NCBI GenBank assembly: GCA_040954595.2
Contig: CM082577.2
Location: 12,841,903-12,905,902, forward strand
Length of the DNA stretch: 64,000 nucleotides
Direction: 5' to 3'
Source of the DNA: Balanoglossus misakiensis
Taxonomy: Eukaryota; Animalia; Hemichordata
Shown one piece after another: positions 7,336 to 63,830 of this stretch. The notes beneath the pieces are model-generated. The model was given only the letters and a program-made list of their open reading frames with translations, had not been told where the DNA came from and made no database searches. The translations under genes were made by a program, and so were the position numbers. Position 1 is the first letter of the stretch; every line of letters starts with the position of its first letter.

Positions 7336-7360
7336 TTTCTATAATTTCGGACAAACTGAG

Positions 7361-18202: not shown

Positions 18203-18279
18203 CACTTCCCTGCTTGCTGGTTGATGTCCCAGCAACCATTTTCACAACAAGGTCATTTTCAAAATTTTAAAATACAATC

Positions 18280-22713: not shown

Positions 22714-23801
22714 TTCTGAGTCTTGCCTTCCTCAGTAGAAGCAGTAGTATTTCCGCTGCTCTGACTGGGTTTCTTAGGACAAACTCGGCTCATATGACCA
22801 ATAGCATCGCATCTCCAGCATCGTCTTTTACCATCTGCCGACACAGTAGGCTTTGATGTCTTTCTTTCGGTGTTTCTATTTTGTAACATTGCTGTTAACA
22901 GCTCCAACTGCTTTTGCTGGGCTGCAACTTGCTCACCTTGTTTGATTATCAAGGCGCGCAAATCTTCTTCTGCTGTTACTTCACAGAGAACGGCACCACG
23001 CTTTGTACGTGAACGCTTTTCGTTCCGTCCCATCAAGGCTATGACATGGTCTCTAGCGTCAAAGAAGGACAATTCAGGTTGGTCGGCATTCAAGCGTCTG
23101 AGTTCAGTCCGTATGTTGTCATCTAACACTGCCTCAGCCAGTCGATTCTTCAGTTGGCATTCCCTACCTGGTTCGAATGACGAATCCAACTGGATAATTC
23201 TATCATACAGATTCACCAGCTCTAGGGAACACGCTACTAAATCTTCACCATCCTTTTGGTGGTAAGCAAAAAAACGCTGTTGTAGTTGTGGCAGCGTATC
23301 ACCATCACCAAATACTTTCGTCAGTATGGAGAATATCTTGCCGGGATCTGAGCTTATGGTACTACCTCTACCCAATATTTCTCGTCGTGCTTTGCCAGAT
23401 AAGTTTTCAATCAAGAAAGCCGCTTGTTCATGACTGGTGAGACCTCTTGATGCAATTACGGCCTTTGCATCTTCGATCCAGTCCTCTATGGACAGTCCGG
23501 ATTCTCCTTTTCCGTCAAATCTATCAATCTTTCTGTTCGGTGACACATATACCATACGAGCAGGTGTATTTCTATTGGCATAGCCAGCAGATGACTCAAG
23601 TGTTGGAAAGGGTTGATCTCTCTCTGAAATCAGTCTCTTAACTTCCCTCTCCGCCTGTCTTGCATCAGCAACTGCTGTTGCAGCTTCGTTATCTTTACGA
23701 GCTACTTCTGTCTTTAAACTTGCTATGGTATCCCGTAGTCGCTTCACATCCTGTTCAGTGACCTCGACTTTCTTTACTGCAGGGCTGGCCATTGTGAACA
23801 T
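22704..23801 (-). CDS. gag: Gag of element B (365 aa)
   Basis: Capsid-like FDG...IEDWIED and CCHC knuckle CWRCDAIGHMSRVC. Confidence 0.93.
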   Translation of the reverse strand: MFTMASPAVKKVEVTEQDVKRLRDTIASLKTEVARKDNEAATAVADARQAEREVKRLISERDQPFPTLESSAGYANRNTPARMVYVSPNRKIDRFDGKGESGLSIEDWIEDAKAVIASRGLTSHEQAAFLIENLSGKARREILGRGSTISSDPGKIFSILTKVFGDGDTLPQLQQRFFAYHQKDGEDLVACSLELVNLYDRIIQLDSSFEPGRECQLKNRLAEAVLDDNIRTELRRLNADQPELSFFDARDHVIALMGRNEKRSRTKRGAVLCEVTAEEDLRALIIKQGEQVAAQQKQLELLTAMLQNRNTERKTSKPTVSADGKRRCWRCDAIGHMSRVCPKKPSQSSGNTTASTEEGKTQKLN

Positions 23802-23975
23802 ATGACACTTACTTTAAAACAGTTCTGTAAGTCTGCAACACAGCAACACTTCTTAACTGGCACTACACAGTTTGAAACAGTTCAGCAACACAGTAAAATA
23901 TCTTCCCATGCAACAGCACAGCACAGTCACATCTGAATACGGTCAGGGTCTTCAATGTGGAATGTCGATGAGGAA

Positions 23976-23993
23976 ATCCTGCCGACTACGCCA
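23976..23993 (-). promoter_or_regulatory. Primer-binding site complementary to the tRNA-Ser 3' end
   Basis: The plus strand reads ATCCTGCCGACTACGCCA, the tRNA-Ser 3' 18 nt including CCA, 2 nt from the LTR. Confidence 0.9.
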
Positions 23994-23995
23994 TG

Positions 23996-25014
23996 TGTAA
24001 CGTTGGTATAAAGATGCACACAGACAATATAGCTGGAGTCATCAATACCGGTTCTTTTATTCCCTATTCCACATTCATAAGGCAAGGACAAAGAGGAAAA
24101 CGAAAACCTGTGTACAGAAAGTACAGAAAACATCTGTATAAATAATACAGCCGCATGTCAACACTTTGTTACAATCAACTAGTAATCACATTTTCCGCTG
24201 AGAAACCCAAATCACATGTAACTACAGGCAATACAACAACAAATTCAATATATATTGCTGCATCAGAGAGATGGCGTGCTGAGCAATGGGTAGACTGGAT
24301 GACTACATCATTACAGTTGCAGTATAACAATAAAAGAGATTTGTTGATGCTTTCCAATAATACACGAAACTCACCCTGACAGGATGCAACCTGTGTCTGT
24401 GGCTTTGTATAATTCTCTGCACTGTCGCACTAAAACACCTGTTTAGATAGTAAACGGCAATGTAAGTGTCTCGCAAAACTACAGAGCCTTTCCGCCAGTA
24501 CATGTAAACATAAAATCAAATTGATGTGGTTTCGCTAAAATGTATGCTGATGAAACTACCAAAAAATGCCTTTACCAATGGAATAGCTATGACTGGGGGT
24601 CATTTTATGAGAAGTATAAGACTCGGTTTTATGTCAACAATAACACGAAATATCAAAGTTTGCAAAAAATACTGCAGCGACAACGGTCGCAACTGAACAG
24701 TAAACACTTGTCTGTGCGTCGACCATCTGATGTGCACGTACGCTGGCATCAAACGATGTATACTAGAAACTTTCAAAAATTGTATGAAAAAGTATTCAAA
24801 AAAACTCCAAATATAACACGGGGACGCTTACCAAGCAGGGACTCATGCAGATCTACTACACGATGTGGCACAAGCGCTCGATTTTCTGATAAAATGACGA
24901 GCAACAATTTCAGTGGGCGCTCAAGAATCAGAGCATTCCCATTTTTGTGAAATGCGCATGCGCAAGCCAAATTGCGCCCTCAAACATATGAGTGGTCAAA
25001 ATCGCAGCCTTACA
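23996..25014 (-). repeat. 5' LTR of element B
   Basis: Copy of 17184-18202. AATAAA on the minus strand at 24056-24061. Confidence 0.95.
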
Positions 25015-27930: not shown

Positions 27931-28609
27931 TTTTGCCTCTACAAAAGTAGGGAGCCCAGTTCTCCTCTTGGTGCGGATGATAGTACAACTGTTTGTAGAT
28001 CTGGAAGTGTTGCCTCATTAATTTAAAGGGTTCTCAGATAACAGTCTGACCGTGTCAGCTTACTCACATACCGTTAGCATGCACGCCATCGAAACTACAC
28101 AAGAACATGCGAGTCTGCATCATAGCTTTTTAATCGGAAATGCTTAAATACTCGTATCGTGGCATTCCAATTGATGTCAAAGAGTAGGATATCAATTCAG
28201 TCATCCGTATAGATGAACAGAGAATAGTTCACATGTGGGTCCAAGCATGCAAATGGCGTTATTTTCACATCACTTATATTCACTGGCACGTGTACACATG
28301 TACTTGTCCGGTCCCAAGATAATGTCACATTTTGAAAGGTTCTGCCACACGTCTACTCTGTTGAATAAAAGAGAAGTCTGTTTTTTTTTGTCCTCAATGA
28401 CATTCAAGTCAGAATCCAAACGTATGTGACTCACGAGCATCACGAGCCTCGTATCATCCTGAACCACGTGCGTTCATGGCAACATCACTCAACATCTGTT
28501 TCTTTCAAAAGGTTTCGACAGCCATCCATGTTTTTTGTCATAGCTTTTATTGATTATAAATTACCCCCGCAACCTTCAGATTACGTCTGTAATTATGGTA
28601 AGTGTCTTA

Positions 28610-36500: not shown

Positions 36501-38679
36501 CCCCCCCCCCCACCAAAAAAATGTGGTAAAGGGGTCCAACATTTTGCACACCATCACTTTTCGGCAGTCAGTCTGCATTCAAGCCAAAGGAGCAAACCAA
36601 ATTGCAAGAAATACCACGACAATACTAACCGTATAGTAAATAGGTGAACAAGTATCTTCAGGGTGGCCAAAACAGAAATGATTACCCCCCCCCCCCCCAA
36701 GACATGATGGAAGGTTCCAAAAATTTGGACCCACCTCATTTTAGTTCTGGTGGAGCCCCATTGAAACCAAAACATCAAAGAAAATAAAAATTTTCGCAAA
36801 ATATTCTATGAGAAGGGAGTAAATAGGCCAACAAACAACTTCGGAGTGGCCAAAATGGAAGTGCCCCCCCCCAAATAAAAAATGATGGAGGGGCCCTATA
36901 ATTTGCACCCTATTATTTTTGGCCAGGTGGGTCCCCTTCAAAGCAAAAACAACAAAAACAAATTAATTGTAGCCCAAATTCCCATGATAATAGAGTAAAT
37001 AGGCCAACGAACAACTTCGGAGTGGCCACAATTGAAGTGCCCCCCCCAAATAAAAAATGATGGAGGGGCCCTATAATTTGCACCCTATTATTTTTGGCCA
37101 GGTGGGTCCCCTCCAAAGCAAAAACAACAAAACCAAATTAAATGTAGCCCAAATTCCCATGATGATAGAGTAAATAGGTGAACAAATATCCTCGAATGTC
37201 CAATACAGAAGAGACCCCCCGAAAAAAAAATGATGGAGGGGCCCTAAAAATTGCACCCCATGATTTTTGGGTAGTTGGGTCCCCATTGAAGCCAAACAGC
37301 AAAAAAATCAATTTTAGCACAAAAATCCTACGAGAATACATATCATACCACAAAACGGAAGTACCCCCCCCAGAAAAATATGATGGACGGGCCCTTAAAA
37401 TTGCACCCCATCATTTTCGGGTAGTTGGGTCCCCATAGAAGCCAAAACAGCAAGAAAATCAATTTTAGCACAAAAATCCTACGGGAATACTCATCATACC
37501 ACACTATTAGGCCAAAATTTCTCTCTTTGTAGTTAGAATATAAAACTCATTCAAGTTTGACTGACCCAGTATCACTGTGGCTTCATTGGACTACCATTTC
37601 TTATAAATAGCAAAAATCGGCCATCCTGAAAGTGTGTTGAGCATGTGAGATTTTCATCACTCACCTAGGTAGCAAAAAGGTAGCGAGAATCAAAACCTCA
37701 CATCCGGTCTGCCAAATATATATACGATTATTAATTAAGGTGGCATTGCATGAAACCGTCAAGACTTTTTCAGAGGCCTATTTCTCATCAAAGACAAGGA
37801 AGCTGAGTTTTTGATATTTGTTTGAGTTGCAAATATTATCGATCCCCGGAAATGGTGGCGATTTTGGGTGAGAAAAAAAAACATTTTTTGATATTATGTC
37901 ATAAAATTTAAATTAGGTAAAAAAGTTGACCATGCATCATGTATCTTAATATGTCATTCGAAACTAGAGTACACGTGCAAAAAAACTGTAATTTTGTTTT
38001 GCGTTATCTGCTTCCATTGAGGAGTAACAGCGCTTGAAAGTTGGATTTTTAGTAAAATTTGATCAAATTCACGGTGAGTTGTATTAAATCAGAGTTTATT
38101 CCCGCCAGGGACACTTTATCGACTAACAATACCGTTTTGTTGGATGGGTCATACACAATCCCCTGTTAAAATTTGAGCAAATTCGGCCAATGCAGAGCGC
38201 AGCTATTGTAGTCTGAAGTTGTCAAGAGCAGCGAAAATGCAAACTGAGAAAAACGGCCATTTGCATTGTTGACACCTATTTGTTAAGCTGTGAACTCATT
38301 CAGAAAAGTGCTATTTTGGGGTGATTATGCACCATTCCGCCTAGACGTATTAGTCAGGATGTGGGTCAGTATTAGGCCTACCGATTTATGTAAAAAAGTA
38401 AAATTTGGCAAAAATCACAAGTTTTCATGCAATGCCACCTTAAGTAGTCAACGACCCCAGTACTGCTGATCTTGCTGAAAGCTCCATTCTGTAACTGTTC
38501 CCTGTGTTTTCAGTTTTGTTTTGAGTATCAATTTAATATGTGCATTATACCACAACTCTGCGGTGTCTTTTAAAATTCGCTTCCTCTTTGTCAACAGCGA
38601 CGAAGGAGAAAATGAAGTCAATTGGAGAGATATGAAGCTTGTGAACGACAAGAAAGACCGCAAATTTATTCAAGGATGA
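33579..38679 (+). CDS. Small secreted peptide precursor, two coding exons (33579-33715 and 38598-38679), 72 aa
   Basis: Translation MNMKTSTFVLLLGIALVISLFTTDCEA-YSRKGKVEAVREKFRRKIA-DEGENEVNWRDMKLVNDKKDRKFIQG*. GTAAGT donor and pyrimidine-rich CAG acceptor; the phase-2 join stays open. Exon 1 is more secure than exon 2. Confidence 0.65.
34052..37506 (+). mobile_element. Non-autonomous Academ-like DNA transposon with long TIRs built of tandem subrepeats
   Basis: TAGTG...CACTA termini, 3-bp TSD TTA, inverted arrays of ~150-180-bp units, and an internal transposase C-terminal fragment. Confidence 0.8.
35916..36201 (+). pseudogene. C-terminal Cys-rich zinc-finger fragment of an Academ-type transposase
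   Basis: LPP...GW......PAP..VLELIKCGCK..C.GRCSC.KNDLPCTPLCKC, then a stop and an acidic EDNDTDDE tail. Confidence 0.75.
37739..38439 (+). mobile_element. Non-autonomous Kolobok-like DNA transposon (701 bp)
   Basis: 17-bp TIR GGTGGCATTGCATGAAA and TTAA TSD. A second copy lies inverted at 58438-59967. Confidence 0.85.
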
Positions 38680-40838: not shown

Positions 40839-41971
40839 TTAAATCACACACATCGCACATGTTAATTCGTACCCATCTACATACGGTCCACATGGTAAGC
40901 CAGTGCCAACAGGACAACGGCTTTCGACGGAATACAGTCGACCAGCATTGACGGCGTCCACGGTGCTGGGTAACATTCTTCCTTCGATGTCCACGCAAAC
41001 GTTCTCGGTCGTTTGGTAGTCGTACTTGGCAGACATCAAGTAGCCGTGGTAAGCAATGTCCCACCCGGCGGGACAGTCGTTTCTAGCCGGGTGTAGTATC
41101 ACGTTGTTGTGGGACTCATCCAGGCAAACTGCACAAGAGACGTCGTTGTACAGGTTGGATGCGAAGGGACCGCTTGTTGTACGGTATTCGTTGTGATATA
41201 TGTAGCTTCTTTCCAGTTGAGAGCCACTCACAACAACGTTCATGTCATATATTGGTACTCCCGGCAAACACAGATAGTTTCCACCATTTCCAGTGTTGCT
41301 GAAGTATTTGGTGCCCATTATTCCTGAAATAAATACACTGGGGTTACACGTTTTCCATTAGGTATCGAACTTGCTATCCCGTTACTAGATACATTTTCAC
41401 CTGTGATACTCGTATTTTGCAGTAAAGGTGACTCTTTTGTGCCGTCCACGTACTCAGTGGGCAATAAGATCATAGGGTACACATAGCTGAATTTATTTCC
41501 ATGTAATTGTATTTGCAATACTTTATTTCCAGAATGTTTCCAAGTTGTGTCGATGAAATACGAGAGCAGGTACAAATCGAGCTGTGACCCGTAGATTTGC
41601 CTCAGGCTGGTCACATCGATTGATATTGAAAGTGCAGTTACAGCGCGCATATATCGGTATGGTTGGACTTCGAGAACGTATTCGTGTACCATTTTGTTTG
41701 TACTTGTTTTAAGTAAACGTTGGATTAATTTCAGATAGATAAACATTTTCTGTGCACCCCTTAGTGAAACTGAGTAAATATAACCCTTTCACCATCATGG
41801 TTTAGTCCAAATCCATTGTTTAATATGGTAACCCCGGGCCTTTAAAGAAGGAACTGGGGATAAAGGGTAAAGATTTAGTCTCAACATTACCATTATATAC
41901 TTTAGTCGTCGCGGTCGGGCATTCATTGTGACCCCATCTTGTGTACACAACGCCTGTGGTAACGGTCGCAG
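40839..41971 (-). CDS. Short-chain collagen C4 (spongin)-like C-terminal domain; last two exons (41891-41971 and 40839-41323), 5' exons not found
   Basis: VYTRWGHNECP...VYNG|IMG...GGNYLCLP...DVSCAVC...PARNDCPAGW..YHGYLM...VCVD...LPCGPY..GYELTCAMC*. Canonical phase-1 splice sites. Confidence 0.8.
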
Positions 41972-42505: not shown

Positions 42506-44488
42506 GACGATATCAAAGGTATACGGTCGCCGACAATCAGCATATTCCCATATATGACTGAAAAATCTTAGTATTCTAAAGAACATATGGTGGCGCTCTT
42601 TTTTTGCGTATGCCACCAACTGCAAATCTGCGATTGGCTAGATTTCAATTCGCCATGGTAACAGCCGTTCAATTTGCATAGGTTACCGTTTACACTTAGG
42701 CCTAAGCCGTAGTTTGAAGCTTGAAGTTGATATCAGATTGACGCCGCACGAACGAGCTTCGAAATGTTAACTGTAAGAAAGCCAAGTAGCTCAATTGATG
42801 CCAAATTTTAGAAGCAGTGACAAATTTAGGCGAATGAACGTGCTGTGGCGCCGTCCGAACTACACGGCTTGGTGGGCCGCAAACATATGCTTCCTGTTCG
42901 CAGATTAAGATTTTGGAATGTGATTATTACAAATAATATATATATTAAATATGGCGGCGGAGAAGTCTGACACTTTAGGTAGTCAAGGGGTTAAAAAGAA
43001 TTGCATTTTGTTAGGTTGTGTGCGTGTATGATTTTGTACATTTAGTCCGATGTAATTTATACATTTCTTTGTAACCTGCCAGGATTGGATACATACACGT
43101 ATATATTGAGAAATTTCTGTTTTGTAATAACCAGTACTGTCTCTTGCCATTGTAATAACCCGTAATTTCACTTGTCATTAATTCGTGGAGTTATAGTATT
43201 CTGAAAACAAATTGTTTGTGTTTGCCTTGGATTGCTCTGGATTATTCTGGTTGATATAAAGGCTTACATTTACTGTGCACTATGGTGCCTTTTCCCCACG
43301 AATTAAATAACAATTCATTACTGTACACTATGTATGTATGGCGTATTCCCCCTCCCCGCGAATCACAGGACTTCCCTCTTTCGCCGTTTTTGATGTTGCA
43401 AAATACGTTAACTGGACTGAACTTCGGAGTACTGGTCCAAGTGACCGCATACAGGTCTAGCGACACCGATCGTTTGGGAATCTTTTTTACCTTGACCTTT
43501 GTCAACTTGACCCGGATTTGAATTTTTTTCTATTGTCAGTCCTCCAGTGCTAAAAATACATGGCGTTGTTGTAGTATCGGAGTTGCCGATGAAGCGCGAG
43601 TATCGTTTTTAATAAAAGTGACCGGATACTGGTCTAGGGGGTGTAGTCATTAAGCCATGCAAACCAGGTACTGATCGATCAAGTGTCAATGATGTCGACA
43701 TCACACTGAATAAACCCAATTGACGAACTATATAAACCAATGTAAAATATCGACGAGAATTTTATGAAGTACAAGCTTTTCCGTGTCTCCTCCGTTGTAC
43801 ATGCGTTCATCTTGTATACATCGATCGTACACAGTTTTACTAAATGTCAATGACGTTGATCTAGACTACTACACGTGTATCGACACAGAAGGTCGGGTGC
43901 CGCTCCGTGCGTGAAAACTTCGCTTGTTATTGACAGCTAACATTTATCTAAAATTGCCAATGAGGGCTTGATCAAAGACAATAAGATGACAATGAAAACC
44001 GCTTTCCTGAATATCATCAATCAGATCAGAAAGACGGAGCAAAAACAGTGCACAAACACATTAAAACGTCGCGCGGCACTTGCAGTTGACTTCAGGTCAT
44101 CTGACTACTCATTAATATGCGCACGCATCTGATTGGTCACTTCAGTAAACTTTCAGCACCTTTGACCCTATATGAATATTAATGAGCTCTTCCATATATA
44201 GGGATCGGGCAGAGTGATTAACCGGGAGCAACAAGTTTAATATTAATTAATTCTATTTCATCTTGCGACAGTCATAAAAAATTAATTATAATTTCACGCA
44301 TTTCTTAACATATGTATAATTAATACAAGTGTGAAAACATCGAATGCATAAATGAAAGAACACGACACAGCGTCTCCATTTAGCACCTGGTCTCTCTTTG
44401 CAGTGGTTACAATTCTTTGCAAAACACACGTAATTTGTCAACATGTTCATATATAAAATGATCGCAGATTAGCCGCAAACTCGCAACC

Positions 44489-47400
44489 ATGGCTTACCTG
44501 AGAAGCTGTAAAAGGTTACAACATCGTCGTGAAGTACCTTTGAAGTTAACACTCGTCGCTTCATTGGTGATGTTGTCGATGACATTACTGCAGCAAGCAG
44601 GTGAGACACTACATTTGGGTTTTGTATGTTCAGAAAGTTTGAAGTTCCTCAAAACAGGAACTTATAATTATTATCATTGTTTCATGTATGATTGTAATAA
44701 AGACTAAATGTTTAATATCCAGATTGCATCAACGTATTCCATGTTTACGATCGGATGGGTCACGCTGAAGCCTACACGTTTTGTGAGCGATTGGGTCTCC
44801 GCCTTGTTAAAGATGACAGCGAAGAAAAACACACAGCTATACGAAAAACTTCAAAGAAACGAGGCATCGCAGGCTGGTATTCCTGGCTAGATGCTCGACT
44901 GAATGACAACGGAGACGTAGTCACCCGAGACGGGGAAATTTTGACCTACAAGCCATCGGTTGAAAGGATTGCAGGGCAGTGCCTCTCAATTAAGTGAGTT
45001 GAAGATTTTGTATTATATATTAAAACATGAAAAAAACAACGTAGCATAACATAAAGAAATCACATGGAATCATGTGCAGAGGCATGCCATATTCATAGTT
45101 ATATATCAGTTGAGACAGAATTGATTAAACTGTCAATGATATCCATGCAGATGTTACAATAGGCAATGTCTTCAGAACACAATTTTGGCAGTTGCGCACC
45201 GATACCTCGATTTTATGGGAAATTTTAATCGTCAACATTTACCTCATTTGTGTAGTATTAGACCAAGTTTACCTAATTCTCAATTGTCTCCGAGTCTTTA
45301 CCAAATTAAAGGGGAACTGTAGAAAACGTTTTATGTAGTTTGACAGATGTGCGGCCTGACAGGCATTAATGGGGTGAAACTTTAATGTACTTACATTCCA
45401 TTTTAATTCACAGAGATGGAAGCTGGGAATTTTTCCAGTGTTCGGAACCACGTCACCCTTTATGTGAAAATACAAGTAGGTTATAGTTTCATGAAGATTT
45501 TTGCAACTTTTACTCGATTTCGAATTTTTCGGGAAAGAAATGGCGTTGTTTTCTAATCTGCAGCATCTTTCGACTTAACTACCACATGGAATGATATGGT
45601 GGGTGCATACCAGCTATGTAAAAAGCTTGGGTTGCGTCTTCTAACTGACACCACTGACTGGAAAATCAAGCAGTACTGTGCGTCCCTTGGGTGCCGTCAA
45701 GCGCCTGCTCGAGGTGTGTGGATTGATGCTACCATCACGGCAGATGGCACTGTGAAGACAGGCAGTGGTTTGATATTGGAACACACGCATTTTGCTCCTG
45801 ACCAGCCACTCGATGCCGGATCGTGTATAAGAACCACGTGAGTCGTTGTCTGTTCACACTATTTTCCACTATGCCCAACAATATAGACATACTTTTATCA
45901 TTGCTTTCATGACTGTTAAGGCGTTGAAACTTCCGAGATTACATGGCAGTTCACTGATTTGAATATCTGTGTATTGTTACGTTTTCCTATCCCGAAGATT
46001 ACACTCTATTGTTAAAAATCACTTTGCACTGTTTCTGGTATTTTGTCAAGTTTATGTTTTATGTTTTGGTAACTAACTGTATCTGGGTTATCATCTGAAT
46101 TGCAAAGCACAATTTGAACATGATACTTTACAGCTAACGCTGATTGCAATATCATTCCGACCCCGGCCGTACAGCATAATAGACAGTGGATGTAGGAAAT
46201 GTATCAGAAACATGTCCATACAAATTTGACTCTTAAAATTCAAAGTACAGTAATTATTGTAGACATTGTAAACTTCAATAAGCGTTGAATAGTGAATCTT
46301 TATACAGGTGTACTGCGGCTACATGTTTATGGAAAACTGAACCTTGTAATACATACCTGTATGTTGTTTGCGAGGATAACGGTGAGTATTTGATGAATCT
46401 CGTTCATTAATTTTCCTTTTCCTACATGTTTGAATGCCTGTGTAGTTTTGTGGTATGAACACATATACACCTAATGCCACTAAAAACGGAACGTAGACAA
46501 ATGCATACGCGTACATTTATCCGCGTGGAAGGGAGTCACATTGGAAATATCCAAATGTATAATGGACCATTAATTTTTTGCTTTCGGTAAATGGATAATT
46601 GAAATAAAAGTTGTATTAATCATCAACGTGTTCGTGGCGTAACCAGATGAGATAATGCACGCAAATAATATATGGACGCAAATAATTGAAATTCGGCGTA
46701 TTGCCTTGCACATTTGATTTCCACGTACGTTAAATTGTCTGCTTTTAGTGCCTTGTCTACACCAATTGATAAAATGACAGAACTTCATGACCTCTGCGCG
46801 CGACCTGTGCAGTACGGATGTTATTTTCATGAGTGATAAGGTGTATTCTTCTGAGTATTTTTATGAGCGACAGCGAGTAAAAGTACTCCTAAACTTCGCA
46901 AGTTCGAGAGTTAGTATGCACATAATAAATAACGCATGAAATTACTATCACATATGACTACCATAAGCCGAAAACGGAAAGGAAATGATTAAACATGTTC
47001 CTTCAGGAAATGGATGAATTGAAACAAAAGTTGTAATAACCAGGGGAGATTTTGTTGAAGTACATTTTGTTGGATTTTATAGAAGTTTGGCATTGACTGG
47101 AAAGGTGTCTTCCGGGGAAAACGTTATATTCAGTATTACTTTAAATCGTAATTGTCTTTAAATTGATGAAATAAAATTCAAACTTTGCCATCTGTCACAT
47201 TATCTTCCCTTTACATTTGCAACATCCAGATGATGACTTACTTCTTCTGCGGGAGAGGTTGGTCAAGATAAGTGACGATGAATTCAGAACAGCAGATGTG
47301 GTAAGAAAGGATCCAATCATTTGAGACTGATGTAATGCACTGTATTGTATAAAGCCACAAGTTAGTGAAATCCACTTTTTGACAACTAATGCTACGTTCT

Positions 47401-50400
47401 AAATTAATTTCACATAATGCTTTAAGCCACATACTATGTAATTGTCTTTACACGTATATTAAATGTCTCTATGTGATATAACTCTATTGTGACAACTAAA
47501 GCTTCATGCTAAATAATGCTACGCACGGCTGTAAAGCCACATACAAAATAATTGTCTTTTCTCTTTCCAGGGTATTAGTGTAATTGACAAGTTGGGCACT
47601 GTAACCTCTGACCTTTTAAATAAAAGTGTCATATTTGAAGGAAGAATTCTATTTGCAAAAGGTATGGTGATATTTGTTGTTTAAATCAAGATGATTCTGT
47701 GACATCTGTATCCTCCACATATCATCCAATGATGTAAAACGATATTGGTGTCAGGCGCAGAAAAAATATCACCTTGCAATTATAAAGCTTACCGAAAATG
47801 CGTCAACCACAGTTCGTTTGTTTCCACAAATCATGCAAATTATTGTTGGCCGTCAAATATCTTACATTTAGCTTAGAGAAACTTCGAGCATTGGACGTGG
47901 CCAAGTTTTGAATGATACGCTGAATTAGAAGTGGAAGAAAATAATAGTCCGGTCCCCTGCCCGTTAGAGTAGCGCAGCCAACGGTGGGATTGGGGCAGGG
48001 GACCAGACTAAAGGATCGGACTCCATTGTCTCGTCATCATTTTTCCAAATGGATTCAAGAAATGAAATTCATTCAATAACCTTCGGGCATTGGTGTAAGG
48101 CCGAGAAATACAGTCAGACAGAGTGAGGTAGTTTTAAATGCCAGTGTTTACCTATTTCAGAAACACTGAATGTCATGCAAAAAGTGATAGACAGAATGCA
48201 GTCCCTAATTGACGCCAATCCGAACCAGAGGCTGAATCCCGGGCAGGCAAATCACCTGACAAAGAAAATAACGAAAGCATTCGACCAGTTATCAATGTTT
48301 ATACTGAACGAGACTACTTGTGGGCATGGACCAATCATCGCGAGAACTTCTTCTCTTGTTCTACATCTGGAAAAGAACTTTGTGCCCTACTTGAGCAACG
48401 TCACCATAATGATAGGAGATGGGAGTGGATTCAGTATTCCACCTGCAGACAGTATGTTTCCACAATTGTCGCGGGACACAGTCTTGAACAGAATGGTCCG
48501 TATGCAACTTCGATAACAATAAGAAAAAATATCACGTTTATTTATATCAATCATTACTCTATTCTTGTATATGGATATTTGTATAACTATTTGCTGCCAT
48601 TTAACTTTAATGTCACGTCCTGGGTGGCTGTTACTTATATATGTGTTGTGTCATGAACCCGTTGTCATTTTCTTTTACAATATAAGACCATAAACAAAGT
48701 ATCTTTGGTTTAATGTAGAATTCTGGTGTTGTCATAATGCATTCTGGTGCTCGGGGAATAATTTAAGTAAGTCTTTTTTTAGATATTTCGTTTCGGTGGG
48801 AACCCTCATGGGTTGGCAAATAGGACTCATGGCTTCACTACCGATATACTGTCCCTGGAATTCAGAGATGGAGATGGTAATGAGATCAAAGGTTGGTTTT
48901 CATTAAGGCCATCACCTGTTAACTTTGCACCATTTAAACCGGAAATGGCGAAATCCTTTACCTAGAAACCCAGTGACATACTTATAGAAACATACCATCT
49001 TGGATGGCAGAAGTCGATTAATAACTGATTTGTGAATTTAGTTTTGACATCAGTGTAAATTATCACGGAAAATGTTGCTTTTCAGTGAAACATGCATCAG
49101 AGGATCTCGGTGTATGGCTTGGAAATCATCAGACACCTTTTAATGAAAGCATCGTCAGGGGATTATACGTGGAAAGGGAAGGAGTCACTCACTATGCATT
49201 GACAGTAACGGTAATCTTCACATACTATATAAAGTTCACTTATCATTGCATTTTTTTCTGATCTTGTCTGTAACATATTTCTATTTGATCATCTATCATT
49301 ATAGAATGATAAATAATTTGCGTCATTGTTACTTAGGTATCGCTACAGCGATACGCAGATTCCGGTTACCAGCCTTTGGCTTTAATATCAATTTCCTTGA
49401 CATCATTTACAGTGGACATGGCCATAAGTTTCGATTTATCTATAGTTGTTTGACCTGTAAGTTAAGGTACTCTGAAATGGCTAAACAAGACATTGGTGCC
49501 ATTTCAAAAACAGTGTTATCGTTTACCTCACAAACTTCATTGTGTTAACTTTATCTCAATTTCGTATTTTTTTTCGTCGTAGGCGCTATCGGCCTACTCT
49601 GCATTTCAAATCATCGTGGAAGCATCAGTGCCTGTCTTCGAGACTACTACAGCATACGTGTCACTGGAAAGACTTGACGCCGTCGGTGGCCACAGTGGTT
49701 CCCATTATGTAACTGAGTTGGTATTTGCAGGGTGTACAGCATCCATATTTCTACCAGAAGCAAAGGTCACCAGGACGGGCTTGTATTATATAGTCTTTGA
49801 CCTTACCAGTGGTAAGATTGTAGTATTGTTTTTTGATGTTTATGTCACTGTAACATTAAAATATCTACATGTACATATTATAGTATGTAATGCCACGATC
49901 TTGTGATTTCATTAAAGCATAAAGAGCTGCCACTTTTTGCATTTTTTCGTGATTTTTACCTCGTGTGATGATAGCAAGGTAGTGTTTCGCCACTTTTGTG
50001 TCTATCTGTCTGTCTGTCTGTCTGTTAGGGCGACATTTCATCAAAGGCTAATCAGAATACGATCACCTCTATTGCACAGGTTTTATATGCAAATGGAGAG
50101 AACTGGTTACTTTTTGTGGGTGTCATATTAAGCTAAATAAATACATTGCCATTATAAAGTATGTTACAAGTTCTAGTGAAAATAGCGTAATTACCGGCAC
50201 GTTGCCACAAAATCCCCAATTCAATGTTTCTCTGTTGGATTGACTCACATATTGGCGGACATTTTGAATTTAAAATATTAGAAAATATTCCATCGTGACC
50301 CCTGTTTCACTACTATAAAGATACTTCAGTTAATTTTTAGCTCTGCTGTCACTTGTTTCAGCCGAGCTGTAGCAGTAGGTTGATAAGTGTCCGTCCGTCG

Positions 50401-52201
50401 TCCGTCCGTCCGTCCGTCCGTCAATCGTCTGTCAACTTTTGGTATTTCAGTCTTCTTCTTTAAAACAACTTGGCATATTAAGCTGAAATTTGGTTGGAAT
50501 GTGTGATATGGTGCCCCTACCTGATTTTGTTAATTTGGATTTGATCGGGTCATGAATATGCAAATAAGACCTAAAAATAGATTTTTTTAATCTAAAATCT
50601 TCTTCTCCATAACTACATGTACGATGGAGCTCAAATTTAGTAGGAATGTGTGTTATGGTGCCCCTACCTGATTTTAATAATTTGGATATGATCGGGTCAT
50701 GAATATGCACATTAGATCTAAAAATAGATTTTTTGGTAAACATCTTCTTCTCCCTAACTACATGTACGATGGAGCTGAAATTTGGTAGGACTGTGTGTTA
50801 TGGTGCCCCTACCTGATTTTAATAATTTGGATATGATGGGGTCATAAATATGCAAATTAGATCTAAAAATAGAATGTTGGGTAACAAATCTTCTTCTCCC
50901 TAACTACATGTACGATGGCGCTGAAATTTGGTAGGAATGTGTGTTATGGTGCCCCTACCTCAGTACCTGATTTTGTTACTTGGAATTTTGATGGGGTCAT
51001 GAATATGCAAATTAGAACCTTGGTGCTTCCTTTTGATGTTGTTCTTTAGGATTCAATTCTTTCTTTCTTTAGCACAATGAATCAAGCTGAATTTGGATAA
51101 TAATTGTGATGTCTATGTTTGGTTTTGTACAATAGAATGCAATTGTTATCATTAAAACCTAGGGTATTCATATCATTGCCCAGGTTACTCTGTTAAAGTC
51201 AGCAGAGCTCTTTTGACCGATAGGTCACTTGTTCATGAAATAGGTTTAAGAAACCGAAGTTAGTTCTCTTATTCTTTTTCTCTACAGCCCACGGGGTTGA
51301 CATCAAGGTCCTCACTACTCAACACAGATGTAGCTACTTTGATGAGACTAACTGGCAAAATGATGGTTGTAAGGTATGAACGCTTCTTCCAATTTTGCAA
51401 TAATTGGTATGCTCCCTGTACTTACAAGCGATGAAACTAAAGACAAGTGACTATTGGTGTGATTTTAGCGGATACTGCGGATAACTATGAAACAGAAACT
51501 TAAAATGCAGAAGGTACTGCACCTTACGATTAATGCTGACACGTGGAAACTACTTTTAACTCAATTAGCACTGATGTTAGTCTAGAATCTATCCGTTCGT
51601 AGTCGCATTCACCCTACTACCGTCTAGGACCGCAGAACCAAAATCTAGTAAGGCCATAAAAATGGTAATTTGAATGTGAATAGTCTCCAACTGAGCAGTC
51701 TGACGTCAGAGAAGTCAATCACTTACGTTGACCGACTACTGATTGGCCGTGAGGTGATGACGTTGAATGTTAATTATGTTTACAATGTAGCTCCGCCCCG
51801 AATGATACATAATCATGATCACGTGGTGACGCTTGACGTCAGATTGCTCAGTTGGAGACTATTCACATTCAAATTACCATTTTTATGGCCTTACTAGATT
51901 TTGGTTCTGCGGTCCTAGACGGTAGTAGGGTGAATGCGACTACATGTACGAACGGATAGATTCTAGACTACACTGATGTATGTGAGAACGCTTTTCCATT
52001 ATACATTATAGCTGGGACGTAAGCCAAGTGTTTGATCTTGTTTCACTTGCAGAGAAACGCCCACTGCTGTGTCAGTATGTATTTGTTCTGCTTGTTATCT
52101 TGCAGGTGTCACCAAAATCCGACTTCAATTCTACCCTGTGTCTGTGTAATCACCTGACTGTTTTCAGTGCAATGGTGGGAGTTGTTCAATCTGATGGATG
52201 A
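44489..52201 (+). CDS. Copy A: signal peptide + 2 C-type lectin domains + polycystin-1-like GAIN/GPS domain, no TM region; 13 exons, 644 aa
   Basis: Exons 44489-44600, 44723-44993, 45414-45475, 45564-45837, 46308-46381, 47230-47300, 47571-47661, 48161-48495, 48783-48891, 49086-49210, 49583-49811, 51288-51373, 52106-52201. All introns are GT-AG with consistent phases, total 1935 nt. GPS reads CSYFDETNWQNDGCKV...TLCLCNHLTVF. Confidence 0.85.
50334..51233 (+). mobile_element. Helentron-associated (HINE/DINE-1-like) element with ~4 internal ~146-bp tandem repeats
   Basis: Starts with TTTTT, sub-TIRs AGCTCTGCTG (50339)/CAGCAGAGCT (51200), a (GTCC)n tract, a 3' hairpin TGACC-GATA-GGTCA and CTTGTT. 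An older similar relic starts at ~49953. Confidence 0.8.
51578..51970. mobile_element. Foldback MITE (393 bp), TAG...CTA termini, 9-bp TSD
   Basis: ~130-bp near-perfect TIRs and TSD CACTGATGT at 51569-51577 and 51971-51979. An AcademH-like assignment is inference. Confidence 0.88.
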
Positions 52202-55432: not shown

Positions 55433-56128
55433 TTAGGTTGAGTGCGTCTATGATTGATTTGTTTATATAGTACGATGTAATTGATACATTTATTTGTAAT
55501 CTGCCAGAATAGGATATATACATGTAAACATTGATCAATATTTCTGTTTTGTAATAACCAGTACTGTCACTTGCCATTGTAATAACCCGTAATTTCACTT
55601 GTCATTTATTCGTGGAGTTATAGTATTCTAAAAAAAATTGTATGTGTTTGCCATGGATTGCTTTGGATTATTCTGGTTGACATTAAAGCGTACACTTACT
55701 GTACACTGTGTATGTATGGCGTCTCACCCCTCCCCACGAATCACATGACATCCCTCTTTCGCCGTTTCTTTTTTGCAAAAAAAAAAACTGGACTGAACTT
55801 TCCTTTGAGAAGAAATAAACCACAGAAGTTACAAGTAATCATAACCAGCACCAACAACTACTTAAACGTTTATTTGTAAATGTGTCCTAATACTGACCAC
55901 AAAAATGGTTAATAAACAATAACAGGCAAAGAAAACGGTTTATACTCTCTGTGTGTCTTGGTTAGAATTCTTAATCAGAGCATTTTGTCAGTTTGTGATG
56001 AGAAATGGCTAAAGTGTGTAACCTTTGATATATATACTACGGAATCACGTGTTTCAAATACAAATACCATTCAGAACAATGGACGTTATTCATTGGTGCA
56101 TATGGCCAGGGAATTACACTATTCAAGT

Positions 56129-56528: not shown

Positions 56529-57411
56529 TATCCTAGTGTTCTAGTGGATGAGGTCAGGCTTTGTTATAAATTCTCTAGGAGGGAAATACAACGTTTTCAT
56601 TTTATTTTGTATTTTTCAAAGGTGGCGGCCATATTCCTCAGCGGCAAAACTTTTTTATTTTATCTGGTTAAAACGGATGTTGGTAGATTTTGCAGATACT
56701 TTCTTACCATATGTGCTGTGTTGAATTCTAAAGAGCGTGTATGTATCTTCACCAACATTTCCCACAACAGAAATAAATCATCATCCGAATAATGCAAATT
56801 GAGATGGCATGGTAGGCTGTAGAATATTACAAATTGCATTTCTAGAACTACAAAGTTTGAGAATAAGATATGTTGCCATAAATAAATTAAAGCCACTCTT
56901 TCATTATCTACTTCAGATCTCCATACCTGTAGGTTAACCTCTCGGCATCCGCATTGTGGCATTCGTGGAAAATGCACTGAAGGGAAGAAATTAAATATAT
57001 CTCACATGCGCACTCAAGTGAAATGCATATTTGCGAGACAATATGCCGAATTTCTATTTTTGTATCCAACCGACGTTTTATACAAGATCCCCACACGAAC
57101 GCTTTAATGATTAATACCACTTTTGTGTATTTATCGATTAACCGGGAGCAACATGTTAAATATTAATTAATTCCATTTAATCTTGTGACATTCATAAAAA
57201 AAAATAATTTTTAATGTCACGCATTTCTTAACATGTGTATAATAATTACAAGTGTGAAAACATCTAACGCATAAATGAAAGAACACGACACAGCGTCTCC
57301 ATTTAGCACCTGGTCTCTCTCTGCAGTGGTTACAATTCTTTGCAAAACACACATAATGTGTCAAGATGTTCATATATAAAATGATCGCAGATTAGTCGCA
57401 AACTCGCAACC

Positions 57412-60400
57412 ATGGCTTACCTGAGAAGCTGTAAAAGGTTACAATATTGTCGTGAAATACCTTTGAAGTTAACACTCGTCGCTACATTGGTGATGTTGTC
57501 GATGACATTACTGCAGCAAGCAGGTGAGACACTACATTTGGGTTTTGTATGTTCAGAAAGTTTGAAGTTCCTCAAAACAGGAACTTATAATTCTTATCAT
57601 TGTTTCACGTATGATTGTAATAAGACTAAAGGTTTAATATCCAGATTGCATCAAAGTTTTCCATGTTTACGATCGGATGGGTCACGCTGAAGCCTACACG
57701 TTTTGTGAGCGATTGGGTCTTCGCCTCGTTAAAGATGACAGCGAAGAAAAACAAACAGCTATAGTAAAAACTTTAAAGGAACGACGCATCGCTCACTGGT
57801 ATTTCTGGCTAGATGCTCGACTGAATGACAACGGAGACGTAGTCACACGAGACGGGGAAATTTTGACCCCCAAGCCATCGCGTGAAGTTTATGGTGGGGA
57901 GTGCCTCTCAATGAAGTGAGTTGACGATTATGTATTACATATTTAAAAAAAAAACGTTTTTGTGGTCATTATAAGATATCTTAACATAAAGCAATTACAT
58001 GGAATCATGTGCAGAGGCATGCCATATTCATAGTTAGATATCAGTTGAGACAGGATTGATTGACATTTTAATGATATCCATGCAGATATTACAATAGGCA
58101 ATGTCTTCAGAACACAATTTTGGCAGTTGCGCACCGATACCTCGATTTTATGGGAAATTTTAACCGTCAACATTTACCTCATTTGTGTAGTATTATACCA
58201 ACTTGAAGTTTACCTAATTCTCAATTGTCTCCGAGTCTTAACCAAAATAAAAGGGAACTGTACAGTAGAAAACGATTTATGTAGTTTGACAGATGTGCGG
58301 CCTGACAGGCGTTAATTGGGTGAAACTTTAACGTACTTACATTCCATTTTAATTCACAGAAATGGAAGCTGGATATTTTTCCTGTGTTCGCGACGAATTC
58401 ACCCTTTATGTGAAAATACAAGTAGGTTATAGTTTAAGGTGGCATTGCATGAAAACTTGTGATTTTTGCCAGATTTTACTTTTTTACATAAATCGGTAGG
58501 CCTAATATTGACCCACATCCTGACTAATACGTCTTAGCGGAAATGGTGCATAATCACCCCAAAATAGCACTTCTCTAAATGAGTTCACAGCTTAACAAAT
58601 AGTTGTCAACAATGCAAATGGCCGTTTTTCTCAGTTTGCATTTTCGCTGTATTATCGTCATATCAGAATACTGAAATACTGGCTAAAATTGCTCAAAACT
58701 AGACCAGGTAGTATCTTGTCAACTTGTTATAAAGTACAATATGATAGAGCAGAAAAAAATATGCATTGTTGGGCACTACAGGTAAAACAACTGTTATGTA
58801 ATATGGGTTTTTCAGAAGTGTGGATGCAACAGGGAGTCTCAAATGAAAATATTTTTTTTAAATTTTTCAGAGAGAGATGTAAGGATGTACAAATGCAAAT
58901 TATCATGTGCGATGTTAAATCCATCCCTAAATTATTCACGTATAGTCGTTTCAAAGTTAGCCCACACATGGAGGAATATTTGTGTATTATTCAACACAGG
59001 GGCTTTAGAGCAGCACTGACCCGTTTTCGTTTATCAAGTCATACCTTGCGTATAGAACAGTGCAGATGGGAAAGGATAAAACCCCCAAGATCAGAAAGAA
59101 CATGTCTCATTTGTAATAAGGGGCAAATTGAAGATGAGTATCACATGTGTTTTATCTGCCCAGCTTATACAGATTTGCGAGAAAAATTCATCCCAAGCTT
59201 TTTCCTAAATCCTCCTGTAGAATATAAGTTTCACAAGCTCATGTCAACAAATAACAAATATTTATTACACCAATTGAGTAAATACATTCTCCTTGCTTTC
59301 CAAAAGAGAGATAAATTGTTACAAGGGTAGACACGATAAATGCTTTGATGGCATGACATATTATTGTATTTCTACTTTGTATTTAAAGGGCCAATCGGCC
59401 ATATATATACTGAATAAACATATTCAATTCAATTCATTTTTGCTGCTCTTGACAACTTCAGACGAAAATAGCTTCGCTCTGCGTTGGCCGAATTTGCTCA
59501 AATTTTATAACTGGGGATTGTGTATGACCCATCCAACAAAACGGTATTTTTGTTAGTCGATAAAGTGTCCCTGGCGGGAATAAACTCTGATTCAATACAA
59601 CTCACCGTGAATTTGATCAAATTTTACTGGAAATCTAACTTTCAAACGCTGTTACTCCTCAATGGAAGCAGATAACGCAAAACAAAATTACCGTTTTTTG
59701 CACGTGTACTCTAGTTTCGAATGACATATTAAGATGCATGATGCATGGTCAACTTTTTTACCTAATTTAAATTTAATGACATAATATCAAAAGATGTTTT
59801 TTTTCACCCAAAATCGCCACCATTTCCGGGGATCAAAATATTTGCAACTCAAACAAAAGTTCAAAAACTCAGCTTCCAGAATATATATGGTTTATGGGGG
59901 TTTTAACGTTGTCTTTGATGAGAAATAGGCCTCTGAAAAAGTCTCGACGGTTTCGTGCAATGCCACCTTAATGAAGGTTTTTGCAACTTTTACTCGATTT
60001 CGAATTTTACGGGAGGAAAGAAATAGCGTTGTTTTCTAATCTGCAGCATCTTTCGACCTAACTACCACAATGATTGATATGGTGGGTGCATACCAGCTAT
60101 GTGAAAAGCTTGGGTTGCGTCTTCTAACTGACACCACTGACTGGAAAATCAAGCAGTACTGTGCGTCCCTTCAGTGCAGCCGTCAAATGCCTGGATGGGG
60201 TGTATGGATTGATGCTACCATCACGGCAGATGGTACTGTGAAGACGGGCAGCGGTTTGATATTGGAACACACGCATTTTGCTCCCAACCAGCCTCTCGAT
60301 GCCGGATCGTGTATTAGAACCACGTGAGTCATTGTCTGTTCACGCTATTTTCCACTATGTCCAACAATATAGACATACTTTTATCATTGCTTTCATGACC

Positions 60401-63400
60401 TTAACTGTTAACGCGTTGTTGGAACTTCCGAGATTACGTGACAGTTCACTGATTTGAATATCTGTGTATTGTTACGTTTTCCTATCCCAAAGATTACACT
60501 CTATTGTTAAAAATCACTTTGCAATGTTTCTGGTATTTTGTCAAGTTTATGTTTTATGTTTTGATAACTAACTGTATCTGCTTTATCGTCTGACCAACCC
60601 CGGCCGTACAGCATAATAGACAGTGCATGTAGGAAATTTATCAGAACCGTGTACATTACCAAATTTGACTCTTAAAATTCAACGTACAGTAATTATTGTA
60701 GACATTGTAAACTTCAATAAGCGTTGAATAGTGAATCTTTACACATGCAGGTGCACTACCGCTACATGTTTATGGAAAACTAGACCTTGTATAAAATACA
60801 TGGGTGTTGCTTGCGAGGATAACGGTAAGTATTTGATAAATCTCGTTCATTAATGTTGCTTTTCCTATATATTTTACTGTCTGTGTAGTTTTGTGGTATG
60901 AACACATATACACCTAATGCCACTAAAAACGGAATGTAGACAAATGCATACGCGTACATTTATCCGCTTGAAATGGAGTCACATTGGAAATATCCAAATG
61001 TATAATGGACCATTAATTGTTTGCTTTCGGTAAATGGATAATTGAAATAAAAGTTGCATTAATCATGGACGTGTTTGTGTCGTAACCAGATGAGATAATT
61101 CACGTATATATGGACACAATTAATTGAAATTCGGTGTATTCTCTTGCACATTTGATTTCCATGTACGTCAAATGGTCTGCTTTTAATGTCTTGTCTACAC
61201 CAATGGATAATGCTAAAGTGCTTAACCCAGCATAAGGGGGCTCCGAAGTACATCTCGATATGGTCACATTTTATTACTCTCACACTTTTGTCACCTCTCA
61301 CATTATCTGCACTTTTCATTTGCAACATCCAGATGATGACTTACTTCTGATGCGGGAGAGGTTGGTCAAGATAAGTGACGATGAATTCAGAACAGCAGAT
61401 GAGGTAAGAAAGGTTCCAATCATTTGAGACTGATGTAATACACTGTATTGTATGCTACGTCCTAAATTAATTTCACATAATGCTAAAAGCCACATACTAT
61501 GTAATTGTCTTTACACGTGTATTAAAGGGCACTATGTGATATGACTATTTTGTGACAACTGAAGCTTCATACTAAATAATTCTACATAAGGCTATAAAGC
61601 CACGTACTAAATAATTGTCTTTTCTTTTAAATTTTCAGGGTATTAGTGTAATTGACAAGTTGAACACTGTAACATCTGACCTTTCAAATGAAAGTGTCAT
61701 ATTTGAAGGAAGAATTATATTTGCAAAAGGTATTATGACATTTGTTGTTTAAATCAAGATGATTCTGTGACATCTGTATCCATCATTTTCGATATCAACC
61801 AATGATGTAAAAACGATATTGGTATCAGACACACAAAAAATAGCACCATGCAATCATAAAGCTTACCGAAAATGCGTCAACTACAGTTCGTTTGTTTCCA
61901 CAAATCATGCTTAGAGAAACTTCGAGCATTGGACGTGTCCAAGTTTTGAATGATACGCTGAATTAGAAGTAGGATACGATAGTCTGGTCCCCTGTCCTAT
62001 AGCGTAGCGCAGCCAGCGGTGGGATTGGGGCAGGGGACCAGACTAAAGGATCGGACTCCATTGTCTCGTCATCATATTTCCAAATGGATTCAAGAAATGA
62101 AATTCATTCAATAACCTTCGGGCATTGGTGTAAGGCCGAGAAATACAGTCAGACAGAGTGAGGTAGTTTTAAATGCCAGTGTTTACCTATTTCAGAAACA
62201 CTGAATGTCATGCAAAAAGTGACAGACAGAATGCAGTCCCTAATTGACGCCAATCCGAACCAGAGGCTGAATCCCGGGCAGGCAAATCACCTGACAAAGA
62301 AAATAACAAAAGTATTCCACCAGTTATCAATGTTTATACTGAACGAGACTACTTGTGGGCATGGACCAATCATCGCGAGAACTCCTTCTCTTGTTCTACA
62401 TCTGGAAAAGAACTTTGTGCCCTACTTGAGCAACGTCACCATAATGATTGGAGATGGAAGTGGATTCAATATTCCACCTGCAGACAGTATGTTTCCACAA
62501 TTTTCGCGGGACACAGTCTTGAACAGAATGGTCCGTATGCAACTTCGATAACAATAAGACAAAATATCACGTTTCTTTATATCAATCATTACTCTATTCT
62601 TGTATATGGATATTTGCATAACTATTTGCCGCCAGTTAACTTTAATGTGATGTCCTGGGAGGCTGTCAGTTTTATATGTGTTATGTCATGGCACCCATTG
62701 TCATTTTCGTTTACAAATAAGACCATAAACATTTCTTGTAAGTATAATCTATGGTTTAATGTAGAATTCTGTTGTTGTCATAATGCGTTCTGGTGCTCGG
62801 GGAATAATTTAAGTAAGTCTTTTTTTTACACTTAGATTTTCCGTTTCGGTGGGAACCCCCATGGGTTGGCAAATAGGATTCATGGCTTCACTACCGATAT
62901 ACTGACCCTGGAATTCAGAGATGGAGATGGTAATGAGATCAAAGGTTGGTTTTCATTAAGGCCATCAGTGATATCCTTACATTCGCATGGAACTCTCAAT
63001 TTTTTTACCTGTTAACGTTGCACCATTTAAACCGGAAATGGCGAATTCCTTGACCTAGAAACCCAGTGACATACTTATAGAAACATACCATCTTGGATGG
63101 CAGAAGTCGATTAATAACCGATTTGTGAAGTTAGTTTTGACATCAGTGTAAATTATCACGGAAAATGTTCCTTTTCAGTGAAACATGCATCAGAGGATCT
63201 CGGTGTATGGCTTGGAAATCATCAGACACCTTTTAATGAAAGCATCGTCAGGGGATTATACGTGGAAAGGGAAGGAGTCACTCACTATGCATTGACAGTA
63301 ACGGTAATCTTCACATACTATATAAAGTTCACTGATCATTGCATTTTTTCTGATCTTGTCTGTAACATATTGCCATTTGATCATCTATCATTATAGAATG

Positions 63401-63830
63401 ATAAATAATTTGCGTCATTGTTACATAGGTATCGCTACAGCGATACGCAGATTCCGTTTACCAGCCTTCGGCTTTAATATCAATTTCCTCGACATCATTT
63501 ACAGTGGACATGGCCATAAATTTCGATTTATCTATAGTTGTTTGACCTATAAGTTAAGACACTCTGAAAAGGGTATACAAGATATTTTTTTGTTGTTGTA
63601 GGCGCTATCGGCCTACTCTGCATTTCAAATCATCGTGGAAGCATCAGTGCCTGTCTTCGAGACTACTACAGCATACGTGTCGCTGGAAAGACTTGACGCC
63701 GTCGGTGGCCACAGTGGTTTTCATTATGTAACTGAGTTGGTATTTGCAGGGTGTACAGCATCCATATTTCTACCAGAAGCAAAGGTCACAAGGACGGGCT
63801 TGTATTACATAGTCTTTGACCTTACCAGTG
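57412..63830 (+). CDS. Copy B of the 2xCTL-GAIN gene; exons 1-11, continues beyond the window
   Basis: Exons 57412-57523, 57645-57915, 58360-58421, 60047-60323, 60751-60824, 61333-61403, 61639-61729, 62196-62530, 62836-62944, 63179-63303, 63602-63830. Same lengths and phases as copy A (exon 4 is 3 nt longer) and the frame is open. Confidence 0.85.
58438..59967 (-). mobile_element. Kolobok-like element (second copy) in intron 3 of copy B, with a nested LINE
   Basis: Same TIRs and TTAA TSD as 37739-38439. The empty site is in the paralogue at ~45480-45498. Confidence 0.88.
58650..59434 (+). mobile_element. 5'-truncated non-LTR retrotransposon (RTEX-like C-terminus)
   Basis: LTRFRLSSHTLRIE...RTCLIC...IEDEYH...CPAY, AATAAA and an (ATTCA)n tail, 11-bp TSD CATTTTCGCTG/CATTTTTGCTG. 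Confidence 0.85.

Follow-up and report, generated by a model that had tools for sequence, protein, structure and literature searches.

Two neighboring genes in a stretch of the genome of the acorn worm Balanoglossus misakiensis (assembly GCA_040954595.2, contig CM082577.2, positions 12,841,903 to 12,905,902 of the forward strand; these 64,000 nucleotides are referred to here as the window) raise the question of whether the lectin-like part of a protein has been driven apart by selection while the GAIN domain joined to it stayed constant, and of what such a GAIN domain would do in a protein that ends at its GPS. On balance, the reading preferred here, if by no means a secure one, is that these are tandem genes for a predicted secreted, anchorless protein, comprising two lectin-like heads, some codons of which were driven apart by selection, on a conserved polycystin-type GAIN stalk.

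Comparison of the window with itself revealed a tandem duplication, with ~43.0-50.0 kb matching 55.4-64.0 kb at ~90%. Copy A contains 13 exons (44489-52201, + strand) with GT-AG introns of consistent phase and encodes 644 residues, while copy B begins at 57412 on the same strand and continues to the window end, with exons 1-11 equivalent to those of copy A (Table 1). The encoded layout is that of a predicted signal peptide, a first C-type lectin-like domain (CTLD1; exons 2-3), a second (CTLD2; exons 4-5), GAIN (exons 6-13), a GPS with HL/T, 14 further residues and a stop. The model of copy A is backed by Ptychodera flava XP_070568693.1 (P0002), with 39% identity in the lectin part and 47% over 364 GAIN residues, and the GAIN region of exons 6-13 matches the family GAIN profile with an E value of 4e-110. 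The P0002 alignment is free of gaps across the exon 10-exon 11 junction, and the exon 12-exon 13 junction is joined in one low-depth contig of run X3, a run not recorded as RNA. An extra exon at 49337-49457 was rejected, given that its phases do not fit and that P0002 aligns ungapped over exons 10-11; this part of intron 10 is an open frame in which the four differences between copies A and B are all synonymous. Membership of the CTLD class is indicated by the WLDA/WIDA motif and the conserved cysteines, with Lectin_C being matched at E 8e-10 in one relative, P0002, and in two stretches at E 1e-13 in another, P0025. That copies A and B represent uncollapsed alleles was judged unlikely because of the 6.5% intron divergence, the many insertions and deletions, and the gene-sized unit with unshared flanks. 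Upstream of copy B, at 56645-56812 (- strand), lies a diverged remnant in inverted orientation that resembles exon 6 together with flanking sequence, perhaps the relic of an older paralogue.

An earlier, sequence-only reading of this locus had described strongly diversified lectin exons at 57645-60824 beside nearly identical GAIN exons. That interval is exactly copy B exons 2-5, the partners being copy A exons 2-5 (44723-46381), and all five peptide pairs quoted from it are present in the sequence. The contrast is real: 36 of 227 residues differ across the CTLD exons, which also include one inserted codon, vs. 15 of 320 across GAIN exons 6-11 (Fisher p 5e-9 for non-synonymous change). Near-identity, however, is confined to exons 8-11 (9/266, as compared to 6/54 in exons 6-7); there, exons 10 and 11 are indeed about one residue apart (0/42 and 1/76, together 1/118). 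Divergence of the CTLDs is patchy, moreover, falling in five variable patches chosen by eye, with much of each CTLD being nearly constant, and clustering of the changed residues was significant for one of the four segment lengths considered (30 codons, p 0.005). The core cysteines are kept (13 of 13 in the CTLDs), but not every tryptophan, with six of the seven of copy A being retained (W157 is lost and W198 gained). The flanking introns are more alike than the patches, as had been claimed: 18-31% of bases differ in the patches, as compared to 5.9% (40/677) of intron bases no more than 100 nt from the exons. Over all aligned intron bases, 194 of 2973 (6.5%) differ, namely, 6.7% on the CTLD side and 6.3% on the GAIN side (p 0.66). 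Within CTLD2 exon 4, the latter half (45716-46311; codons 200-241 of copy A) presents many purely synonymous differences (synonymous differences per site, pS, about 0.2-0.29) and a single residue change, and looks like an older segment. In another sample (one sample from one study), many variant contigs of the gene were found; codon 121, which specifies Ala and Gly in copies A and B, encodes a third residue, Asp, in one of the contigs listed, and intron 9 carries three distinct inserted strings at one spot, such that further copies or alleles exist. Contigs were fewer over the CTLD1 patches, to which no weight is given here.

Evidence for selection is found at the level of sites, and mainly in CTLD1. 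Non-synonymous differences per site (pN) in CTLD1 reach 0.119 and so exceed the intron divergence of 0.065 (p 0.003), with the ratio of non-synonymous to synonymous rates (dN/dS) being 1.46 in CTLD1 (non-significant) and 0.49 in CTLD2. Changed CTLD codons differ 23, 24, and 9 times at positions 1, 2, and 3, respectively, and 19 of the 50 carry two or three differences, where 6.6 were expected; the same is true of only 13 of 180 intron triplets (p 5e-7). As adjacent mismatches in the introns show no doublet excess (13 observed vs. 12.5 expected), the excess of multiply hit codons does not reflect a mutational tendency of this region. When a two-sequence codon mixture model was fitted to the CTLDs, ~14% of codons were assigned an imprecise dN/dS (omega) near 12, with twice the log-likelihood gain (2dL) being 25.7 (p 3e-6), or 16.9 when 8% doublet mutations were allowed; none of 300 null simulations attained the observed value. 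CTLD1 alone gave a 2dL of 17-22 and favored the selection model over a fast-neutral model by 3.7-4.5 log units. By contrast, no high-omega class was obtained for GAIN (p at least 0.82). Synonymous change is not raised beside changed codons (6/51 vs. 8/85 sites), and the five patches, picked post hoc, hold ~42 non-synonymous vs. 6 synonymous differences. In the heads, and chiefly in CTLD1, positive selection is likely to have acted on a small share of the codons. A search with the CTLD region of P0002 returned two of 920 proteins, P0002 itself and an isoform, and so no replicate set of paralogues.

According to their motifs, the changed residues lie at the end of alpha2, in the alpha2-beta2 loop, in the long loop (EPN-equivalent), in beta4 (WND-equivalent), in the beta4-beta5 loop and in beta5, a placement derived from these motifs and the CTLD anatomy of PMC7618208 rather than from a three-dimensional model. 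In the same source, the long loop is the part that varies and confers specificity, and the upper lobe is where CTLDs most often bind proteins; the changed residues may occupy the face that CTLDs use for ligands. Calcium-dependent carbohydrate recognition involves a long-loop motif, either EPN or QPD, together with WND in beta4 (PMC7618208). These three motifs were found in neither CTLD of either copy, with CTLD2 containing QPL and WKT. As such, "lectin" here denotes a fold rather than proven sugar binding, and, because these motifs are lacking, the heads would bind without calcium site II. The predicted signal peptide would direct export of the protein, and copies A and B, with their changed residues on the presumed ligand face, would each recognize partners of their own; the likeliest of these are non-self surfaces, whether microbial or other, encountered in mucus or body fluid.

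In GAIN exons 6-11, synonymous divergence (0.053) is about that of the introns (0.065; p 0.57) and pN is low (0.022), which points to purifying selection and not to conversion as the explanation of GAIN similarity. Gene conversion, put forward earlier as the alternative that would undo the contrast, is accordingly not the main cause, although some local homogenization near exons 8-11 is likely: intron divergence is heterogeneous (p 0.009), and the intron sequence around exon 8 is identical over a run of 148 nt (p 0.006). Conversion probably adds locally to a conservation that purifying selection would mainly maintain. The fold was assessed on the model of a relative, P0010 (43% identical, predicted local distance difference test score of 86), standing in for copy A. 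The top four Foldseek matches of this model are GAIN domains, and the top seven obtained by VIA are GAIN-bearing chains (best Z 17.8, root-mean-square deviation 3.3, 215 residues aligned to GPR126). Beta-sandwich matches at model residues about 201-321 are in line with the additional sandwich reported in PMC11697300, and the family GAIN profile matched a mollusc polycystin-1-like GAIN (P0051) in two stretches (E 2e-13 in a 17-sequence test set). From sequence and model, the GAIN is assigned to the PKD1 type. [quoted passage not shown] The GPS of copy A reads CLCNHLTVFS, and so includes HL/T, with an in-frame stop 14 residues later and no transmembrane, PLAT, REJ, or channel part. No exon for a polycystin membrane part was found in the 64-kb window (best E 1.9).

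Copy A is not alone in ending in this manner. A search with exon 8 among 1.84 billion proteins yielded 36 representatives; of the 30 for which the species was checked, 27 belong to Ptychodera flava and one to Glandiceps talaboti, the named matches being acorn-worm proteins, and two of the remaining six are unrelated repeat proteins. Fifteen matches extend as far as the cysteines of the GPS, every one of them ending 3-26 residues beyond CxC. HL[TS] is present in eight of these, while nine of the 15 either lack it or end at it. Among 34 relatives scanned, none showed PLAT, REJ, channel, or 7TM Pfam domains, whereas the N-terminal domains vary (CTL, HYR, F5/8, SRCR, SUEL, PAN, and pentraxin). In a tree of 27 of 37 rows, the ten with fewer than 200 GAIN residues having been left out, P0002 branches as sister to the pair formed by copies A and B (support 96/93). 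Longer relatives did not emerge from the searches made: exon 8, used as query in a word-based search of longer proteins, gave none in 53 candidates, and a search for long transmembrane relatives, covering lengths of 1706-4870 and weak as evidence of absence, gave 16 matches among 7979 scored, of which 15 have no relation to GAIN and the other is a polycystin. Matches in ESM Atlas were all under 0.9. The annotated P. flava model P0025 presents NHL repeats fused to a signal-like stretch and CTLD-CTLD-GAIN, and probably corresponds to two merged genes; in a PDB sequence search with P0025, the NHL part alone matched. No description of a GPS-terminated, secreted multigene family encoding the ectodomain only was found in the open-access listings searched, subscription papers and supplements lying outside that scope. 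Likewise, passages of PMC12716839, PMC13554239, PMC5521101, and PMC4890752 do not describe such a gene family, which supplementary gene-family tables of hemichordate genome papers could mention.

The term "constant autoproteolytic module", used for the GAIN in the sequence-only reading, has to be revised: HL/T occurs in copy A, but only 14 residues follow, and the triad is missing or terminal in the nine relatives just mentioned. Cleavage at the GPS would free at most a 14-residue peptide and appears dispensable in this family; the constant GAIN would serve as a stalk, either structural or for the docking of effectors. A role in immunity or in mucus is suggested by the multicopy organization, by the swapping of recognition modules and, weakly, by a nearby Toll-like receptor gene, an intronless 995-residue open reading frame (ORF) with leucine-rich repeats and a TIR domain at 25030-28014 (- strand), 16 kb upstream. 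The same selection and anatomy could instead reflect a gamete or egg-coat partner, with the protein acting as a secreted analogue of sea-urchin REJ1-3. Such a role is suggested by analogy, as SpREJ1-3 combine carbohydrate-recognition domains reported to be under positive selection with a GPS (PMC1934368), while copy A offers tandem CTLDs and a polycystin-type GAIN. Yet the SpREJ genes are single-copy, REJ-bearing and, save for SpREJ10, which lacks both transmembrane segment and GPS, membrane-anchored (PMC1934368), whereas divergence here is between tandem copies in one genome, within a family whose members exchange binding domains of many kinds. A gamete role is considered unlikely, although it is the alternative that fares best.

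Several results weigh against the preferred reading. Averaged over exons 2-5, dN (0.105) is lower than dS (0.128), so that the value of 0.82 falls on the side of the dN/dS <= 1 outcome named beforehand as refuting diversifying selection; this average masks fast sites, which are in the minority. In the site model, CTLD2 by itself does not reach significance (p 0.07-0.18), and a fast-neutral class fits it ~1 log unit better than a selection class does. When 23% of changes are modeled as doublets, 2dL drops to 6.4 (p 0.04). The model itself is our own grid-fitted implementation, involves two sequences only, and holds the transition/transversion ratio kappa fixed. CTLD synonymous divergence (0.118 overall, 0.15 in CTLD2) exceeds that of the introns (p 0.015), pointing to older or imported segments, and the flanks of exons 8-11 (21/612 bases, 3.4%) differ less than those of the CTLD exons (5.9%; p 0.048). 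As to the protein end, copy B is truncated by the window end, beyond which exons 12-13 would fall, and the other 19 of the 34 related matches stop ahead of the GPS, such that some annotation models may be partial. The low average dN/dS, the synonymous divergence of CTLD2, and its fast-neutral fit would be accommodated by a scenario without positive selection, in which constraint on surface loops is relaxed and gene conversion among many paralogues homogenizes GAIN and introns and imports older CTLD segments, as the uneven intron divergence, the identical run at exon 8, and the many variant contigs would also suggest. The preference of CTLD1 for selection over a fast-neutral class, the ratio of changes in the post hoc patches, and the lack of synonymous enrichment next to changed residues argue the other way, and we regard this scenario as rather improbable. 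Diversifying selection on a recognition surface, as proposed from the sequence at the outset, is retained for sites of CTLD1, and not for the domain average or for CTLD2 taken alone.

Less probable still is that the protein acts in trans on a membrane polycystin, whether as a free ectodomain, through a released 14-residue tail serving as agonist, or as an exchangeable head docking on a receptor stalk. The PC-1/PC-2 channel is activated by a soluble N-terminal fragment of PC-1 (PMC7728438) and PC1 by stalk peptides (PMC9672506), and several relatives end at the cleavage site, which would leave the groove of the last strand empty. The tails, however, are unconserved in length and sequence (3-26 residues), and no exon for a polycystin membrane part was found in the window. 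An extension of the idea, namely, a split polycystin receptor in acorn worms, in which a large family of ectodomain-only genes with exchangeable, positively selected heads would provide a modular receptor repertoire, their GAIN stalks docking in trans on a membrane polycystin common to all, at its exposed stalk strand, is offered as a long shot.

That the hydrophobic stretch at the N-terminus is an uncleaved anchor (giving a type II membrane lectin), or that the ends without a transmembrane segment are annotation artefacts, is held to be about as improbable as action in trans. Copy A does have a 19-residue basic leader and a Gln at -3 of the likely cleavage site, a possible donor lies inside exon 13, and an X3 contig parts from the window sequence after 52191; against this, the signal peptides of several relatives look short and classical (judged by eye), all 15 GPS-reaching relatives end there, and the X3 contig continues through the possible donor.

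Returning to the anchorless protein with selected heads, the selection pattern by itself is ordinary for lectin families, the sea-urchin REJ proteins being a close precedent, and it is the GAIN family without an anchor that was less expected. GAIN has been stated to be confined to adhesion GPCRs and PKD1-like proteins (PMC9672506; PMC11697300), to which a family ending at the GPS would add a third, membrane-free use. Members ending at or before the cleavage site would provide natural tests of GAIN folding and function without a tethered strand, and the lectin-like heads, as likely targets of selection, represent a tangible candidate for a hemichordate system of diversified recognition.

The features of the tandem unit are listed in Table 1. 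The insertion in copy B intron 3, which we take to be Kolobok-like, contains a nested ORF (58596-59327) with no Pfam match, presumably LINE-like, and has an inverted sister copy without the nested piece at 37731-38443. Adjoining the Toll-like receptor ORF, a long terminal repeat (LTR) retrotransposon at 17184-25014 has long gag-like and pol ORFs (- strand) and identical 1019-bp terminal repeats, and was therefore recently inserted. A second element, at 6925-13521 within simple repeats, has identical 392-bp bounding repeats and long ORFs that are retrotransposon-like by eye, and a 2.7-kb tandem duplication spans 2320-7685. A Cys-rich ORF at 40842-41357 (- strand) has no Pfam match and, we assume, resembles short-chain collagen C4-like proteins. 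At 28-663 (+ strand), an ORF has a weak match (E 0.004) to the F5/8-type region of P0034, a member of the family, and is possibly an exon of another lectin gene.

Table 1. Coordinates of the duplicated genes and associated features in the window.
Feature	Position	Strand	Remarks
Upstream non-coding block	43011-43424, duplicated at 55433-55800	.	Start marker of tandem unit
Copy A exon 1	44489-44600	+	Start codon and predicted signal peptide; hydropathy peak 2.25, residues 20-34
Copy A CTLD1	Exon 2 44723-44993, exon 3 45414-45475	+	Lectin_C E 0.005 (exon 2 alone, under curated cut-off); collinear with P0002
Copy A CTLD2	Exon 4 45564-45837, exon 5 46308-46381	+	Motif-based; exon 4 alone without Pfam match
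Copy A GAIN exons 6-9	47230-47300, 47571-47661, 48161-48495, 48783-48891	+	
Copy A GAIN exons 10-13	49086-49210, 49583-49811, 51288-51373, 52106-52201	+	
Copy A last exon (13)	52106-52201	+	GPS with HL/T (GPS E 7e-4), 14 residues, stop; AATAAA at 52450 and 52715
Copy B exon 1	57412-57523	+	
Copy B CTLD1	Exon 2 57645-57915, exon 3 58360-58421	+	Lectin_C E 6e-4 (exon 2 alone, under curated cut-off)
Copy B CTLD1 variable patches	About 57761-57811, 57866-57904, 58361-58405	+	
Copy B intron 3 insertion	58434-59971	.	TTAA-flanked, 21-nt terminal inverted repeats; not in copy A
Copy B CTLD2	Exon 4 60047-60323, exon 5 60751-60824	+	One extra codon in exon 4
Copy B CTLD2 variable patches	About 60169-60207, 60779-60814	+	
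Copy B GAIN exons 6-11	61333-63830	+	

Among known proteins, the closest relatives are P0002 and its paralogues, which likewise show CTLD-CTLD...GAIN and end just past the GPS; P0002 differs from copy A in having four HYR domains between the CTLDs and GAIN, in ending with HLK, and in bearing automatic names only. Diversified secreted lectins of invertebrates, such as the FREPs and CREPs, also place a variable recognition domain on a constant module within a multigene family, albeit with different domains and with no homology implied. Like PKD1L2, PKD1L3, and polycystin-1, copy A offers a CTL and GAIN ectodomain, yet lacks the PLAT domain, the 11 transmembrane segments and the channel part of these proteins. 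Soluble N-terminal fragments of adhesion GPCRs, generated by cleavage or from alternative transcripts, similarly bear GAIN without 7TM (PMC6667449; PMC13197933); they are, however, products of receptor genes, whereas here whole genes end at the GPS. With SpREJ1-3, members of the PKD1 family (PMC1934368), copy A shares a signal peptide (predicted in copy A), C-type lectin domains, and a GPS, but it has neither REJ domain nor transmembrane segment, is 644 residues long as compared to their 1450-2681, and diverges between tandem copies. Finally, unlike SpREJ10, in which both transmembrane segment and GPS are missing (PMC1934368), the acorn-worm family dispenses with the transmembrane segment and keeps the GPS.

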